Below, one piece after another: positions 7,003 through 14,419 of a stretch of DNA of 14,419 bases. Both the position numbers and the translations under genes were made by a program. Below the pieces are notes generated by a model. The model was not told the origin of the DNA and did not search any database. It was given only the letters and a program-made list of their open reading frames with translations. Positions within the stretch are counted from its first letter, which is position 1. Each line of letters begins with the position of its first letter. Source of the DNA: Ignisphaera sp. (lineage in GTDB: Archaea > Thermoproteota > Thermoprotei_A > Sulfolobales > Ignisphaeraceae); the NCBI GenBank assembly GCA_038821645.1, contig JAWBDT010000024.1:1-14419 (forward strand), in the 5' to 3' direction.

Positions 7003-7821
7003 TCAGCCCGTATATAAGTTTTGCGTACTGTTTCTATCTAGAGGTCTAGGGTAGATGAGGTAGACTTCTCCCCTCAAGCCACTCGATATAGTTCTACCTC
7101 TTACATACACATTCTCTAGATATTTTGAGGCTTCTTGTTCTACTCTATCTAGTTCATCTATTGTAGGTTTTCTCCATAGAGCTCCTGGAACAGGTATGAA
7201 GGAGTCTATTATTAGCGGTATATCTCTATCTAATGACGCTATGAATTTAGCTAATCTACGTATCTCTTCAACATCATTGAAACCAGGTATCAGGATTGTC
7301 TCTATAGCTATGTTTATGTCTGCTTCATACATATTGATTATGTTGGTGAGAACTGGTTCTAGAGGAAAACCTGTGTATTCTTTATGTTTCTTTGGATCTA
7401 TATTCTTTACACTAGCTATAACTGTGACACGAGGATCTCTAAGTTCTTCAACTAGATCTCTACTCAGACTATAGGAGTTTGTAAGCATCTTGATCTCTAG
7501 TCCAAGATCCTTAAGCATTCTGGTAATCATAGCTATAGCTGGATCTATACTTGGTTCACCACCTCCTAGAACAACTCTCTTCATATTGTATACAGAGATT
7601 AGTTCTTTTGCTAGAGTCTCTAAACCTCTATAGGATAGAAATCCGCTAAATCTTAGACTCGAAATAGTTTCACTAGGTAGATGGCAATCCCATATAGATA
7701 GCCTTCTTATACACCCTAGACATCTAAAGTTGCAGTTGTAGAAGTGTATATAGGCTGAAGAATCATAGTCGAAGTAAACTATATGAAAAACATGTGTATA
7801 AATGTTATCGCTGTATTCTAT
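7003..7821 (-). CDS. Radical SAM protein (~272 aa), probable non-canonical ATA start; longer than the tracked 7003..7584 ORF
   Basis: The frame stays open upstream of the ATG at 7584 up to the TGA at 7830-7828 and encodes YIHFYNCNFRCLGCIRRLSIWDCHLP (CxxxCxxC at 7734-7711). GGGEP, MLTN and IETILIPG follow. The extension has no in-frame ATG/GTG/TTG. ATA at 7821 lies 6 nt after GGTGA. Confidence 0.85.
   Translation of the reverse strand: MEYSDNIYTHVFHIVYFDYDSSAYIHFYNCNFRCLGCIRRLSIWDCHLPSETISSLRFSGFLSYRGLETLAKELISVYNMKRVVLGGGEPSIDPAIAMITRMLKDLGLEIKMLTNSYSLSRDLVEELRDPRVTVIASVKNIDPKKHKEYTGFPLEPVLTNIINMYEADINIAIETILIPGFNDVEEIRRLAKFIASLDRDIPLIIDSFIPVPGALWRKPTIDELDRVEQEASKYLENVYVRGRTISSGLRGEVYLIYPRPLDRNSTQNLYTG
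7011..7025 (-). promoter_or_regulatory. Candidate internal BRE/TATA promoter for btuFCD-cobT-cbiS
   Basis: The minus strand reads CGCAAAAC-TTATATA, a purine-rich BRE followed by a TATA box, in the last codons of the radical SAM gene. Predicted TSS is about 6990. Confidence 0.6.
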
Positions 7822-7827
7822 AGATGG

Positions 7828-7865
7828 TCACCAAAGCTGTGGTGAGTTTAAACAAGATATATCTT
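7828..7865. promoter_or_regulatory. Three abutting palindromes upstream of the radical SAM gene, containing its SD and a possible TATA box
   Basis: TCACCA-AAGCTG-TGGTGA (7828-7845), GTTTAAAC (7846-7853), AAGATATATCTT (7854-7865). Confidence 0.55.
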
Positions 7866-7925
7866 CTTATGTATCTCTATTCAACTTATTAAACATGTGG
7901 GAATAGATGGTTCTGGCTATATTAT

Positions 7926-9023
7926 CTACTTTCTTTCTATACAGCACCTATAGCAAGCTTCTGCTAGATAAGCTATAATCTCTAGAGGAGCTGGTGGATA
8001 AACCTCTATATTGATCATCAATCCACTTGATTCTGTCTCTAGCTTCTCTACAGTGTTTCTAATGTAGTTCAAGATCTCTTCTCTAGATTTGTTGAGAATT
8101 AGATGCTCTTTATCGATATTGAGATCTATACATACTTTGCCTCTAAATAGGGAAGCGATATTGTCTATACCGTTAGCGCTATCCTGTATATTCAGCACAT
8201 CTACATCCATTTCTAGAAATACATTAGCTAGAGGAACTATGTTGCCATCGCTATGGAAGTATATAACAGCATTCATACTCTTCACCTCATTGAAAAATCT
8301 TCTATAGTATGGTAGAAAGTATTCTCTGAGATGATGCGGCTTTATCAGAGGAGAATCTTGTGCACCTAGATCCTCTAGAAATACAACAACATCAATTCCT
8401 CTATATCTCTTAACCACTTTAAGTAGACCAAGCTTGTATTCCGCAATCTTGTTTAAAGCTATAAGCAACCTCTCGTCACGTCTGTATAGAGCTGGAATAA
8501 GCTTGTTTAGAGGAACTAGATCCATAAGCTTCTGGAACAAGAAATGATGTAGGTTGAAGACTATGAGTCGACCGCGTTCTTTCAGTTTATCGAAATAGTT
8601 GAACAGTTCTTCCCATGGGATTAGAGGTCTAGGATCAGCAAAACCTACAGGATAGCCTGTTTCTGGATCAGGTAGAGACCATTCTCGAACTCTATCTAGA
8701 TCCTCTAGAGGATAGCGATGAGGTATACCGACAAACCCCTTTATCCTAAATCTCCAGATCGTTCCATAAACATCTACAGTATATCTATCTTCATAGATGT
8801 CTCTGGATTCTTCATCAAACCTCAGCTCTTCTGGATCGTAGTCAGGGAAAGCTAGAGGATATTTATTGATTATCTCGATGATCTTTTCTCTATAGATGTT
8901 TAGAATGGGTTGAGAAAGATTGATTCTACATGGCGTGAACATAGGTTTCTCAAGTCTGGCACACTTCAAGAAGTTTAGTCTATGTATTCTCCAAATCTCT
9001 TCAATATCTAGGCGAGTTTTCAC
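7926..9023 (-). CDS. Uroporphyrinogen decarboxylase (URO-D)/MtaA-CmuA-like TIM-barrel family protein, putative corrinoid-linked methyltransferase
   Basis: DVYGTIW, YPLEDL, FLEDLGAQDSPLIKP..LREYFLPYY, YFHSDGNIVPL, VDVLNIQ, P.APLE are typical of this superfamily. GTG start with AGGTGA SD at 9033-9038. Not recognisably HemE. Confidence 0.75.
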   Translation of the reverse strand: MKTRLDIEEIWRIHRLNFLKCARLEKPMFTPCRINLSQPILNIYREKIIEIINKYPLAFPDYDPEELRFDEESRDIYEDRYTVDVYGTIWRFRIKGFVGIPHRYPLEDLDRVREWSLPDPETGYPVGFADPRPLIPWEELFNYFDKLKERGRLIVFNLHHFLFQKLMDLVPLNKLIPALYRRDERLLIALNKIAEYKLGLLKVVKRYRGIDVVVFLEDLGAQDSPLIKPHHLREYFLPYYRRFFNEVKSMNAVIYFHSDGNIVPLANVFLEMDVDVLNIQDSANGIDNIASLFRGKVCIDLNIDKEHLILNKSREEILNYIRNTVEKLETESSGLMINIEVYPPAPLEIIAYLAEACYRCCIERK

Positions 9024-9148
9024 TAAATTTAGTCACCTTTATAGATCTCTTGCTGAAGCTGGATATAGGGTTTAGCGTATATCGAGAATTGTGATAAAGA
9101 TTTGAATACGTAGCAACATTCTCTATAGCTATAGGGTGGCTACATTAT

Positions 9149-11003: not shown

Positions 11004-13514
11004 TTGAGTAGCAAATTGTCTCAAATCTCTATACCGATCATCATATCTATGGTTGTTATAGCTAGTGTAGCTGGAATCATTGGCTATATAGCTGGAGGCT
11101 CTAGAGCTCCAGTTACATATACACATACATATGTCTTAACATCACCAGTAACATCAACTAAAACAGTTACTGAAACAACTACATCAATTCTAACATCTAC
11201 CTTAATATCTACCTTGAGAGAAGCTGTAGAAACTACACATACTATCACTATGCCTACAACATATACACAAACAGTCACAATCACAAGAACAATTACAGCA
11301 TTACCTCAACAAACAGTTGTACCAGAAGGTAGTAGACTCTTCTACTTCTATCTCCCTTGGGATGATTCTATACAGACAGATATAAGTCTTGCTGATTATC
11401 TCCATAAACCTGCTGGTAAGTATGGTCATGTGTATGTGGGTAGCGATGGACGTCTCTATGTAGGTAACCAGAGGATAAGGTTCTTAGGCGTTAGTGTAGT
11501 GGGTCCAGGAGCTTTTCCGACGAAAGAGGAGGCAGAACTTATAGCTGCTAGATTAGCTAAATTTGGTGTAAATCTTGTTAGGTTTCATGCTCTTGACGCT
11601 AACTGGGAGCCTTACAACAATATATTTTCTCCTCCAGGTACAACTAGACTGAATCCAACGAATTTAGATAGAATGGACTATTTCGTTGCTCAACTAAAGA
11701 AGAATGGGATCTACATAAACATAAACTTGATGTGCTATAGACAATTCTCATCAGCTGACGGTCTTCCAAGTGAGGTAAACATTATGGCTGTTAAAGATCA
11801 GCATATACTGCCATTCTTCTATGAACCGGCTAGAGAACTTGTGAAAGACTTTGCTAGAGCTCTTCTAACTCATGTGAATCCCTATACAGGGTTATCATAT
11901 GCAGAAGATCCTGCAGTAGCTATGATAGAGATTCTTAATGAATATGGAGCTACTTTTGGATGGCTTGATGGAGCTGTAGATAGACTTCCAAAGGTTTTTA
12001 GAGATGCTTTAAGAGAGAAATGGAATCAGTTCCTCATAGAGAAATACGGTACTACAGAGAACTTGGTGAAGGCCTGGGGATCAGACAGTATTCTACCTGG
12101 AGAAAATCTGGAGAACAAGACTGTCGATGTATTTGATCTCAAGGACCTGATGCTGAAGAGACCTTCACAAAGAGCTCGAGAAGATTGGGCTGAATTTCTG
12201 TGGAGACTTGACTACGAGTATTTTATGGATATGTACAATTTCTTGAAGAACGAGCTAGGTGTTAAAGCCCTTATAGCTGGAACACAATCTGCTTGGGGAG
12301 GAATGCCGAACATAATGGCTCAACTAGATATTGTTGATGCACATCACTACTGGAGATATCCTGTTGGTTCTGGAAACAATTGGTATGTACAGAACGACGC
12401 TATGGTGAACTTTCCAGAGTCTAATACCTTATCTCAACTAGCTTTCAGAAGTGTCTATGGTAAGCCTTTCACAATAAGTGAATATAATCATCCTGCACCA
12501 AATATGTATAGAGCTGAAGGTTTTGTATTTCTATCAGCTTATGGAGCTCTTCAAGACTGGGATGCCTTAATGCCTTATAGCTATGGACCTTATACCTCAG
12601 GACATATAGCTATGGCAAGCTGGAACTCTATGATGATGAGAGGTACACTAGACTTTGATCAAGATCCAGCTAGATGGGCTATGATGATCACAGCATTTAT
12701 GCTTTTCGTAAGAGGTGATGTATCTCCAGCTAAACATTTTGTAGCTATAGAGATGGATAGAGAGATAGAGATACAGCTTGTAGCTACACAAAGAGCTAGT
12801 GCATGGAATATGCCCAATGGTGTTCATCTAAATATACCATACTATGTGCCTCTAATCCATAGAGCTAGACTAGTTGTAGCTAATACAACAAAACCTGTTG
12901 ACGCTCTTTCACCAAGAGATGTAAAACCACCTGAGGGAAGCATCATAAAGTCTGATACAGGTGAACTTATATGGGATTGTAGAGATGCTGGAAGATGCGT
13001 CTTTATTGTTAATACATCTAGAAGTATAGTTTTGACGGGCTTCATAAGCGGTAAGAGGTTCGATCTAGGAGATATAGTTATAGAAGTTAAAGATACTTTA
13101 CTAGATGGTTGGGCAACAATAGCTCTACATGTGCTAGAGGGAACAAGCTTTAGAGATGCCAGAAAAATACTCATAATAACTATAGGTGCAGCTTTTAACA
13201 ACAATATGCCTATCTATAACTTCGATAACAGGCAACTCTTATTTAGAACATCATTAAATCTAACGAAAGATGACTTAAGCAATCTCTATGGAAGAAAGAT
13301 ATCGAATTTCGGTAACTGGGGAAGAGGTCCAACAATTGTTGAAGGTATTGAGGCAACAATATCGATTAAAACAAATAGAAACATTATTGCATGGTCTTTA
13401 GACAATATAGGCAGAAAAACAAGATCACTTACTGTAGTAACTAGACAAGAATACAAAGACATACTACTGCTACCTACACATGGAACAATATGGTATCAAG
13501 CTGTAGTGTATTGA
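11004..13514 (+). CDS. Membrane-anchored/secreted multidomain clan GH-A (GH5-like) glycoside hydrolase with Thr-rich stalk
   Basis: TTG start with AGGTG SD (10992-10996), N-terminal hydrophobic helix, Thr-rich residues ~37-105. Catalytic barrel motifs RIRFLGV, GVNLVRFH, NPYTGLSYAEDPAVAMIEILNE (acid/base E313), DAHHYW, FTISEYNHP (nucleophile E493). Beta-rich C-terminal domains. Confidence 0.85.
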   Translation: MSSKLSQISIPIIISMVVIASVAGIIGYIAGGSRAPVTYTHTYVLTSPVTSTKTVTETTTSILTSTLISTLREAVETTHTITMPTTYTQTVTITRTITALPQQTVVPEGSRLFYFYLPWDDSIQTDISLADYLHKPAGKYGHVYVGSDGRLYVGNQRIRFLGVSVVGPGAFPTKEEAELIAARLAKFGVNLVRFHALDANWEPYNNIFSPPGTTRLNPTNLDRMDYFVAQLKKNGIYININLMCYRQFSSADGLPSEVNIMAVKDQHILPFFYEPARELVKDFARALLTHVNPYTGLSYAEDPAVAMIEILNEYGATFGWLDGAVDRLPKVFRDALREKWNQFLIEKYGTTENLVKAWGSDSILPGENLENKTVDVFDLKDLMLKRPSQRAREDWAEFLWRLDYEYFMDMYNFLKNELGVKALIAGTQSAWGGMPNIMAQLDIVDAHHYWRYPVGSGNNWYVQNDAMVNFPESNTLSQLAFRSVYGKPFTISEYNHPAPNMYRAEGFVFLSAYGALQDWDALMPYSYGPYTSGHIAMASWNSMMMRGTLDFDQDPARWAMMITAFMLFVRGDVSPAKHFVAIEMDREIEIQLVATQRASAWNMPNGVHLNIPYYVPLIHRARLVVANTTKPVDALSPRDVKPPEGSIIKSDTGELIWDCRDAGRCVFIVNTSRSIVLTGFISGKRFDLGDIVIEVKDTLLDGWATIALHVLEGTSFRDARKILIITIGAAFNNNMPIYNFDNRQLLFRTSLNLTKDDLSNLYGRKISNFGNWGRGPTIVEGIEATISIKTNRNIIAWSLDNIGRKTRSLTVVTRQEYKDILLLPTHGTIWYQAVVY

Positions 13515-13630: not shown

Positions 13631-13948
13631 GATGCATGAAATATACACTAAACCTGAATAGGGCTTAACCATTTTCTGAATTCTGTAGTACACTATCTCT
13701 ATATACTTTCTATCTAATGTTAGTGTTATCTTTATCTGGAGAGCGAAGAACATTGATACTATATATATCTAGTTCTCTAGATATCTTATGTTTCTATACT
13801 CTAGTTTATTGTTATCTTGATTCTAAATGTTTCTGAAGATGTTTTGTTTTAGAGAATGTATATCACCTCTTTAGCTGGAGAGTGATGAATATTTTTAACT
13901 GTTGTTCTTTAGTAAGTTTTTAACCGAACGTTTATTGGTGTGAAAACC

Positions 13949-14419
13949 TTGGATATAGTGGATGAAATAATTAAGCTAAAGAAAGAGACTGGAGCAGTCA
14001 TCTTGGCACATAACTATCAGTCTCCTGAAGTTCAAGATGTAGCAGATTTTGTTGGAGATAGCCTCGAACTTTCTGTGAAAGCTCTAGAGAGTAGAGCAAG
14101 AGTCATAGTATTTGCAGGTGTAGACTTTATGGCTGAACAAGCAGCTATTCTGAATGAGGATTCTATTGTCCTTCACCCTGATCCAGAAGCTCAATGCCCT
14201 ATGGCTCAAATGATAACTGTTGAAGAACTTAGAAAGTTCAAGAAGCTTTATCCAGAAGCTCCAGCTATAGTTTATGTTAATAGTCCTGCTATAGTTAAAG
14301 CAGAAGCAGATTATGTTGCTACTAGCGCTAATGTTGTTGAACTAGTTAGATCACTATCATCTGATGTAGTTATCTTTGGACCTGATGCTCATCTAGCTCA
14401 GTATATAGCTGAAAGAACT
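13949..14419 (+). CDS. nadA: Quinolinate synthase NadA, 5' part (runs off the window; absent from the ORF track)
   Basis: Translated by hand from TTG at 13949: MDIVDEIIKLKKETGAVILAHNYQSPEVQDVADFVGDSLELS...IVFAGVDFMAE...AQCPMAQM...VYVNS...TSAN...FGPD, matching NadA motifs. GGTG SD at 13937-13940. An alternative in-frame GTG is at 13940. Confidence 0.95.
   Translation, partial: MDIVDEIIKLKKETGAVILAHNYQSPEVQDVADFVGDSLELSVKALESRARVIVFAGVDFMAEQAAILNEDSIVLHPDPEAQCPMAQMITVEELRKFKKLYPEAPAIVYVNSPAIVKAEADYVATSANVVELVRSLSSDVVIFGPDAHLAQYIAERT

Follow-up and report, generated by a model that had tools for sequence, protein, structure and literature searches.

Where does translation begin in a gene whose reading frame offers no ATG, GTG, or TTG ahead of the part that holds its catalytic motif? 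The question is raised by a radical S-adenosylmethionine (SAM) enzyme gene on the minus strand of a 14,419-nt stretch of Ignisphaera sp. DNA, which we refer to as the window; it begins a contig of 17,090 nt in a draft genome of 1.57 Mb, 31 contigs, and 35% GC. Ignisphaera is a hyperthermophilic archaeon that grows at approximately 90°C. Throughout, G000 denotes the genome under study and G004 that of a sister species; the other G numbers used in ortholog comparisons denote Ignisphaera species. An earlier note on this DNA had proposed that an intact enzyme requires initiation at an ATA codon at position 7821. Our analysis favors the same answer: translation probably starts at ATA 7821, led there by a Shine-Dalgarno (SD) motif, with the codon read as methionine and with expression that is probably low.

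The start-free reading frame and what it encodes

The minus-strand frame follows a TGA stop at 7830 to 7828 with CCA, TCT, the ATA at 7821 to 7819, and GAA, and stays open for 274 codons to a stop at 7005 to 7003. Its codons 1 to 81 include no ATG, GTG, or TTG, and codon 82 is the ATG at 7584 (7582 to 7584, minus strand). Upstream of that ATG, at 7711 to 7734 (minus strand), the frame encodes CNFRCLGC, which is the [4Fe-4S] cluster motif (CxxxCxxC) of radical SAM enzymes. The earlier description of this frame, from the TGA to the missing starts, holds in every detail. We compared the start-free lead, defined as the stretch before the first ATG, GTG, or TTG, across 1042 stop-to-stop frames of at least 200 codons in G000. 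The median lead was 4 codons and the 99th percentile was 57 codons; the 81 codons of the radical SAM frame rank fifth genome-wide, which makes them more than a chance feature.

The Pfam Radical_SAM domain (PF04055) covers residues 26 to 196 of the open frame (69.6 bits against a cut-off of 29.5; profile positions 1 to 166 of 166) and begins 56 codons upstream of ATG 7584. In an alignment of 26 homologs that are 39 to 95% identical to the window protein, the cysteines of the CxxxCxxC motif (C30, C34, and C37) are invariant in 26/26 sequences, and so are G86, G87, G88, and E89 of the glycine-rich SAM-binding motif GGGE (7555 to 7566, minus strand); the GGE motif of radical SAM enzymes is known to bind SAM. 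An AlphaFold model with a mean predicted local distance difference test (pLDDT) score of 89.9 consists of alternating strands and helices, with low confidence for residues 1 to 10, and contains a confident beta-hairpin (strands 11 to 17 and 22 to 27) ahead of the cluster loop. Because the domain, the invariant cysteines, and the modeled hairpin all lie ahead of ATG 7584, a complete enzyme needs an upstream start. The complete enzyme is the 272-residue form, and its proposed coding sequence would occupy 7003 to 7821 on the minus strand, with 272 codons from ATA 7821 and the stop at 7005 to 7003.

Public annotation is inconsistent on this point rather than uniformly truncated. Clustering at 90% identity groups 12 distinct calls of the protein. 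Five begin at ATA 7821 (four of 272 residues and one of 276 residues with an altered stop; 7, 6, 4, 1, and 1 contigs), and one of these, the NCBI call P0050 on 6 contigs, is exactly the 272-residue protein of the window with M for ATA. Three calls of 248 residues (P0051, P0052, and P0054; 6, 5, and 4 contigs) begin at the ATA at 7749 (7747 to 7749, minus strand), which has no SD motif ahead of it, and this form would lose the first hairpin strand (11 to 17). The remaining four (P0057 to P0060; 14, 5, 4, and 1 contigs, from NCBI, JGI, ENA, and Logan) are 193 residues long and begin at ATG 7584, which is internal Met 80 of the 272-residue protein and is the start found by callers limited to ATG, GTG, and TTG. 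The earlier expectation that automated annotation would truncate the protein is therefore borne out by the 193-residue calls on 24 contigs and fails for NCBI, which also holds calls from ATA 7821 (272 residues) and ATA 7749 (248 residues).

It is very unlikely that the 193-residue product is the only one made, as a radical SAM remnant without a cluster. In its favor, no canonical start precedes ATG 7584 in the frame, and callers of several sources picked it on those 24 contigs. However, the product would be devoid of the N-terminal hairpin, of two PflA-like barrel helices, and of the CxxxCxxC motif; nothing resembling an SD stands out in the 20 nt upstream of 7584; and the upstream 79 codons are open and conserved in all copies seen. 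Inferences about function or structure drawn from these calls without the iron-sulfur motif, which are spread over 24 contigs and several public sources, would be wrong.

The Shine-Dalgarno motif and the competing starts

The proposed start codon, ATA at 7819 to 7821, stands 6 nt behind GGTGA (7828 to 7832), a core SD motif whose own TGA (7830 to 7828) forms the in-frame upstream stop; the 6-nt spacer CCATCT occupies 7822 to 7827, and all three elements are on the minus strand. Since the 3' end of the 16S rRNA in G000 reads ...GGATCACCTCCT, GGUGA pairs with the 16S rRNA tail. At spacings of 4, 5, 6, and 7 nt behind GGTGA, there are 24, 48, 64, and 31 canonical starts, with the mode at 6, and the earlier comparison of this spacing with that of cobT was correct (GGTGA, ttcggt, ATG 3992). 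The canonical starts at GGTGA+6 in G000 are 25 ATG, 13 TTG, and 5 GTG codons, so TTG is a frequent start in this genome. Among the near-cognate codons in the radical SAM frame, ATA 7821 is the sole one with an SD motif; ATT 7803, ATA 7782, and ATA 7749 have none. The position of the domain and hairpin upstream of ATG 7584, the single near-cognate codon at SD spacing, and the genome-wide excess described below all support the claim that an intact enzyme needs initiation at this ATA.

In the mechanism that we propose, pairing of GGUGA (7832 to 7828) with the 16S rRNA tail would place the 30S subunit at the optimal 6-nt spacing, and AUA would be decoded by the initiator tRNA despite a mismatch at the third position, giving a protein that begins with Met. 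Six codons farther downstream, the ancestral ATG has decayed to ATT in G000 and to AGC in G004, and residues 2 to 7 would be an extension that is new and free of constraint. If bacterial AUA and AUU starts are a guide, output is probably a fraction of the ATG level. The sequence features, their conservation, the completeness of domain and fold, and the genome-wide excess are observations, from which we infer a ribosome start at ATA 7821, insertion of Met, and low expression.

The history of the start can be read from the homologs. In 18/26, the protein starts at one alignment column with the sequence M-x-T-x-[IV]-[FY]-H-I-[VT], and at the nucleotide level a canonical start, GTG in G001 and ATG otherwise, stands at this column or close to it. 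The column falls on ATT 7803 (7801 to 7803, minus strand) in G000 and on AGC in G004. A start at ATA 7821 gives a predicted N-terminus of the MEYSDNIYTHVFHIVYFDYDSSAYIHFYNCNFR type, with 6 extra residues relative to the homologs; extensions of 4 to 9 residues are found in P0005, P0009, and P0034. Because the homologs' ATG aligns with ATT 7803 or AGC and not with ATA 7821, the ancestral start was lost and a six-residue extension gained. The earlier idea of a recent start-codon mutation survives insofar as an ancestral ATG was lost, whereas the lost ATG did not stand at ATA 7821. The alignment of orthologs that had been suggested shows ATA kept in close relatives (G004), and it places the ATG of distant homologs at ATT 7803. 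The codon lies at one end of a variable patch (7801 to 7815, minus strand) that encodes residues 3 to 7 and differs at 6/15 nt between the G000 and G004 alleles.

Initiation at one of the other in-frame near-cognate codons is unlikely, and each of the three has a point in its favor. The ATG of the 18/26 homologs falls exactly on ATT 7803, ATA 7749 is the start in NCBI records on 15 contigs, and ATA 7782 is at the position of the called start of P0003, the nearest outgroup protein (74% identical). However, none of them has an SD motif or a G-rich stretch upstream. ATT 7803 cannot serve both alleles, as it is AGC in G004 and in sequencing run X14; a start at 7749 removes strand 11 to 17 and part of strand 22 to 27, including the nearly invariant T9 and H13; and the first residue of P0003 may be merely the first ATG, GTG, or TTG open to its gene caller. 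P0003 itself is found in Logan only, and used as a metagenome query it returned 4 loci, one of the G004 type and three at 49 to 52% identity with a normal ATG.

A base-call or assembly error in place of a true ATG, which the earlier note had also raised, is refuted by other copies of the locus. G004 reads identically across TGA CCA TCT ATA GAA, with the same open-frame length and 95% amino acid identity, and the JGI metagenome contig L111 matches letter for letter at the start of the gene. Contigs from four runs in four studies span 7003 to 7950 at depths of 9 to 57 and show zero differences at 7819 to 7832; this comparison used Logan contigs rather than reads, which demonstrates presence and leaves minor variants invisible. 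Runs X1, X12, and X13 carry the G000 type and run X14 the G004-type allele, with no intermediates seen; X1 is near-identical to G000 and may be its source sample. With NCBI proteins called from ATA 7821 on at least 18 contigs as well (the exact protein on 6, close variants on 12), we assign next to no probability to an error, even in a 31-contig draft genome in which nadA at the window end looks misassembled or frameshifted. The ATA codon and SD motif are kept in G004 (where the spacer is invariant as well), in L111, and in the four-run contigs, which is weak support, as these copies are only ~3% diverged at the locus.

The same pair of alleles bears on whether the gene is a young pseudogene, in which the ancestor shared by G000 and G004 had lost the start and the frame is still open for want of time. 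Over the whole gene, the alleles differ at 26/816 nt (11 synonymous and 15 non-synonymous changes), with a synonymous divergence (dS) of 0.06 and a ratio of non-synonymous to synonymous divergence (dN/dS) of 0.38. In the N-terminal 72 codons outside the patch (7800 to 7585), there are 3 synonymous and 2 non-synonymous changes, and dN/dS is 0.18. Decay would be consistent with the ancestral ATG position now being ATT or AGC, with the 6 changes in the 15 nt around it, and with the whole-gene ratio, and a dS of 0.06 is too small for dN/dS to exclude neutrality. Nevertheless, the 272 codons are free of stops and frameshifts in both species, the NCBI variants, and the contigs of four runs, in a genome whose 35% GC content readily gives rise to stop codons. 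The low ratio in the N-terminal codons, the near-cognate codon at optimal spacing behind an SD motif, and the same arrangement in clearly intact genes (flavodoxin, GH35, RACo, UDG, and a gene with ATA in 17 species; see below) likewise argue against decay, and we regard a pseudogene as distinctly unlikely.

A further alternative is recoding, in which translation would start at an out-of-frame GTG at 7831, within GGTGA, and shift by +1 at the stop of the resulting mini-ORF (open reading frame), TAA 7807 (TGA in G004). This mini-ORF of 8 codons plus stop (7805 to 7831, minus strand) overlaps ATA 7821. Both alleles keep it with the same end although 4 letters differ, and a +1 shift would enter the main frame just ahead of the ancestral start. 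The last sense codon, however, is CGA in one allele and CAA in the other, and neither re-pairs in the +1 frame; GTG 7831 has no SD motif; and the genome-wide pattern, together with the ATG of orthologs at SD+6, is more simply explained by direct initiation. Recoding is thus extremely unlikely. We also considered an out-of-frame start at ATG 7793 followed by a -1 slip on a T5 run and rejected it, since the upstream residues T, H, V, and F align with the family N-terminus in the main frame.

Near-cognate codons behind Shine-Dalgarno motifs in Ignisphaera

The radical SAM gene belongs to a wider class. We took a census of GGTGA sites in G000 that are followed by an in-frame ORF of at least 120 codons, counted such that the motif's own TGA is the upstream stop and codon 3 is SD+6. 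Of 97 such sites, 43 have their first canonical start at codon 3, and 15 have no canonical start within 12 codons. Codon 3 of these 15 startless frames is ATA in 5, ATT in 3, ACG in 2, and CTG in 1, the others being TTT, TTT, TTA, and GTT. Near-cognate codons therefore occupy codon 3 in 11/15 frames, versus 21/135 at the nine other positions (1, 2, and 4 to 10; Fisher P = 6e-6) and 60/405 behind other stop contexts (P = 1e-6). The SD motif is only 5 nt long at 7/11 near-cognate sites, with a mean of 5.9 nt versus 5.9 nt at canonical ones.

A Pfam domain begins inside the start-free stretch in a flavodoxin (C8:59104, ATA), a GH35 glycosidase (C9:22491, ATA), a RACo-type protein (C18:653, ATA), and a UDG (C7:25285, ACG); 3/11 near-cognate cases are ambiguous (GH3, DHquinase, and DUF2118), with a canonical codon 10 to 11 codons downstream, near the domain start. 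In the flavodoxin gene, the ATA of G000 and G004 aligns with ATG in G001, G002, and G012, and the proteins share the N-terminus M-P-x-[VI]-L-V-x-Y-Y-S. The ACG of the UDG gene in G000, G004, G001, and G010 aligns with ATG in G014, G002, and G015, with ATA in G012, and with GTA in G009; the reading is ambiguous for G001 and G010, whose SD motif contains a GTG in frame. A Fer4 gene has ATT in G000 and G004 where G012 and G014 have ATG; at the same column G002 has ATC, with a TAG two codons before it. The near-cognate codon was the same in G004 as in G000 in 5/5 genes checked.

The most widely kept case is a 317-residue gene without a Pfam match (C13:28431, within C13:28108-29384, L041; orthologs L042 to L057, the G015 copy near C1:1286928), in which ATA is present in 17/17 species of the genus at 30 to 87% protein identity. 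The arrangement is GGTGA-N6-ATA in 15/17 species and has GGGGA in the other two. The gene upstream, which encodes an RPB9-type zinc ribbon with an acidic tail, has its TAG or TAA stop overlapped by this ATA, and its last sense codon varies (ACA, GGA, or TCA) and always ends in A.

Beyond G000, the first 400 kb of the complete genome G015, from the same genus, contain 19 GGTGA-plus-ORF sites, and 2/2 startless frames there are near-cognate (ATT and CTG). Two genomes that represent other families of the order, sampled over 400 kb apiece, have near-cognate codons in 1/7 (25 sites) and 2/5 (27 sites) startless frames, numbers too small to tell whether Ignisphaera differs. We give about even chances to the broader proposition that AUA, AUU, AUC, ACG, and CUG are regular SD-dependent starts in Ignisphaera, used by approximately 1 in 10 genes with a core SD at optimal spacing and with no need of the extended SD required in bacteria, that the identity of the start codon drifts among ATG, ATA, ACG, and ATT from one species to another, and that proofreading is relaxed or SD placement dominant. 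This wider pattern in the genus is a more interesting lead than the single radical SAM gene.

Start codons are checked by aIF1 in archaea and by IF3 in bacteria. Loss of aIF1 as the cause of relaxed start selection can be ruled out, as an aIF1/SUI1 gene is present in G000.

A number of observations weigh against initiation at ATA 7821 and against the class to which we assign it. The excess of near-cognate codons is confined to spacing 6: spacings 4 and 7 together have 55 canonical starts and a near-cognate codon in only 1/7 startless cases, and at spacing 5 the in-frame GTG of the motif itself precludes any score. Initiator tRNAs carry three G-C pairs next to the anticodon loop, and neither of the 2 tRNAs with a CAU anticodon among the 46 found by ARAGORN has them, so that no initiator tRNA was identified among these. 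The SD of the radical SAM gene is only the 5-nt core, with 5 contiguous nt. A TATA-like hexamer, TTTAAA (7847 to 7852, minus strand), lies 31 nt upstream of the ATA and, as a candidate promoter element recognized from sequence only, could put the transcript start downstream of the SD and give a leaderless mRNA; a TATA-box profile upstream of 373 confident G000 starts showed no clear peak with which to tell a leadered from a leaderless transcript here. Of 24 sequencing runs listed, 20, from 10 studies, contain the stretch, with no RNA run among them. G000 and G004 are so close (dS 0.06) that their shared ATA says little, the dN/dS values rest on few changes, and the 15-nt patch after the ATA diverges faster than the synonymous rate. 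Finally, since the homologs' ATG aligns with ATT 7803, six codons downstream, rather than with ATA 7821, the argument from orthologs that works for the flavodoxin, UDG, and Fer4 genes cannot be extended to the radical SAM gene.

Starts of this kind are familiar in bacteria. The E. coli genes infC and pcnB have AUU starts, and NCBI table 11 lists ATA, ATT, ATC, and CTG as starts. In Staphylococcus aureus, infC, ccpN, and citZ (AUA) and cvfC1 (AUU) yielded approximately 10%, and up to 30%, of AUG output in reporters, and near-cognate starts depended on extended SD motifs, which are present at all such sites (PMC13009471). An E. coli study puts initiation at non-canonical codons at 0.01 to 2% of the AUG level (bioRxiv 10.1101/063800). 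Profiling in Haloferax volcanii classed ~30% of putative alternative initiation sites as near-cognate, and its authors set these aside to limit false positives (PMC7261190).

The radical SAM gene resembles the S. aureus cases in having AUA or AUU behind an SD in an intact conserved gene that is missed by finders limited to ATG, GTG, and TTG. It departs from their extended SD motifs in having a 5-nt core, and the SDs of near-cognate genes in G000 are no longer than those of canonical ones. The host also differs, being a hyperthermophilic archaeon, and its near-cognate share looks far higher, with 11 near-cognate versus 43 canonical starts at the same spacing. We expect low expression of the radical SAM gene on the basis of the S. 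aureus reporter output of ~10 to 30% of ATG, and throttling of expression through the ATA start, one of the explanations offered earlier, is plausible by that analogy. H. volcanii offers a likeness in that archaeal ribosomes are able to initiate at near-cognates of AUG. In contrast, the H. volcanii sites are alternative or novel ones rather than sole starts of conserved enzymes, in a genome that is largely leaderless and GC-rich. The mechanism is thus known from bacteria (infC and ccpN), and the radical SAM gene would be a new archaeal case; we found no report on ATA or ATT starts in Ignisphaera or other crenarchaea in a literature search that left most subscription journals outside its scope.

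To our knowledge, AUA, AUU, or ACG as the sole start of a gene has little experimental backing in archaea. If the proposition for the genus is true, the ribosome of a hyperthermophilic archaeon would proofread start codons much less strictly, or depend to an unusual degree on placement by the SD, and many Ignisphaera proteins would be misannotated. The same annotation fault affects at least 7 well-supported G000 genes, and probably more; the seven encode the radical SAM enzyme, the flavodoxin, the GH35 glycosidase, the RACo-type corrinoid activator, the UDG, the ferredoxin-domain protein, and the conserved 317-residue protein. A cultivable genus in which 1 in 10 genes with an optimally spaced SD has a near-cognate start would be well suited to studies of how aIF1/aIF2 and SD pairing govern start-codon stringency at about 90°C, and could also show whether weak starts keep certain enzymes scarce.

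Five more G000 genes have a Pfam domain that starts within 3 to 21 residues of the upstream stop and their first ATG, GTG, or TTG 57 to 158 codons later: DUF2204 (C5:81981, L014), NTPase_1 (C11:26762, L016), 2-hydroxyacid dehydrogenase (C3:15801, L017), HMGL-like (C17:27911, L023), and endonuclease V (C3:74660, L021). These have TTT or GTT at SD+6 or are without an SD motif.

The enzyme, its neighbors, and other features of the window

Read from ATA 7821, the frame encodes an intact 272-residue radical SAM enzyme of a small, PflA-like type. The best fold match of the AlphaFold model is PflA (PDB code 3c8f; 244 columns of 245 residues, Foldseek E value of 3.5e-12, template modeling scores of 0.64/0.70), and its top fold matches are all radical SAM enzymes. 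PflA (PDB codes 3c8f and 8fo0) is the best match by both structure and PDB sequence, is of the same size, and likewise has its CxxxCxxC near the N-terminus after a short beta-hairpin. The two differ in that identity is 17 to 18%, the activase models score far below their cut-offs (TIGR02494, 47.5 versus 174.35; TIGR02493, 34.9 versus 231.75), and the window has no gene for a glycyl-radical enzyme. This partner was absent from the 10 window ORFs in a Pfam scan that did not extend to the rest of the genome. Among NCBIfam subfamilies, the protein falls far below the cut-off of every named one, including the MoaA model TIGR02666 (54 versus 284.05), and a protein atlas placed it in generic "radical SAM" clusters only.

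By Pfam, the neighbors in the window are BtuF, FecCD, an ABC ATPase, CobT, CbiZ, an MtaA/URO-D-like protein, and a pterin-binding protein. Homologs of the radical SAM gene in at least 7 sister-species loci (among L004 to L011 and L013) adjoin FecCD or BtuF-type ABC transporter genes, and the gene is thus linked to BtuFCD-type ABC transporter genes in the genus Ignisphaera. These surroundings suggest that its role may be tied to uptake or remodeling of a corrinoid or similar cofactor. A second homolog in G003 (G003:C4:3539-4144, L013) has two TGA and one TAG inside the match and is probably a decayed paralog.

Upstream of the ATA, a perfect inverted repeat, TCACCA-N6-TGGTGA (7828 to 7845, minus strand), directly follows the TTTAAA hexamer and contains the SD motif in its 3' arm. 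Judging by its letters, the repeat could act as an SD-masking hairpin or as a regulator or operator site; in RNA folding of the initiation region, the SD-containing hairpin was no more stable than those of shuffled sequences (z = -1.4 and -1.2).

Three other features of the window deserve mention. Ahead of the MtaA/URO-D-like gene upstream, the minus strand at 9026 to 9021 reads GGTGA, ctaaat, TTA, GTG, with the canonical GTG at spacing 9 and TTA at spacing 6. On the plus strand, an 836-residue ORF (11004 to 13514) has no Pfam match at an E value of ≤0.001. Lastly, nadA (quinolinate synthase; 13940 to 14419 of the window and on to C24:15105, L161) is split over two overlapping frames, the first matching positions 2 to 154 and the second positions 112 to 293 of the Pfam NadA profile, a pattern suggestive of a frameshift combined with partial duplication or else of faulty assembly.

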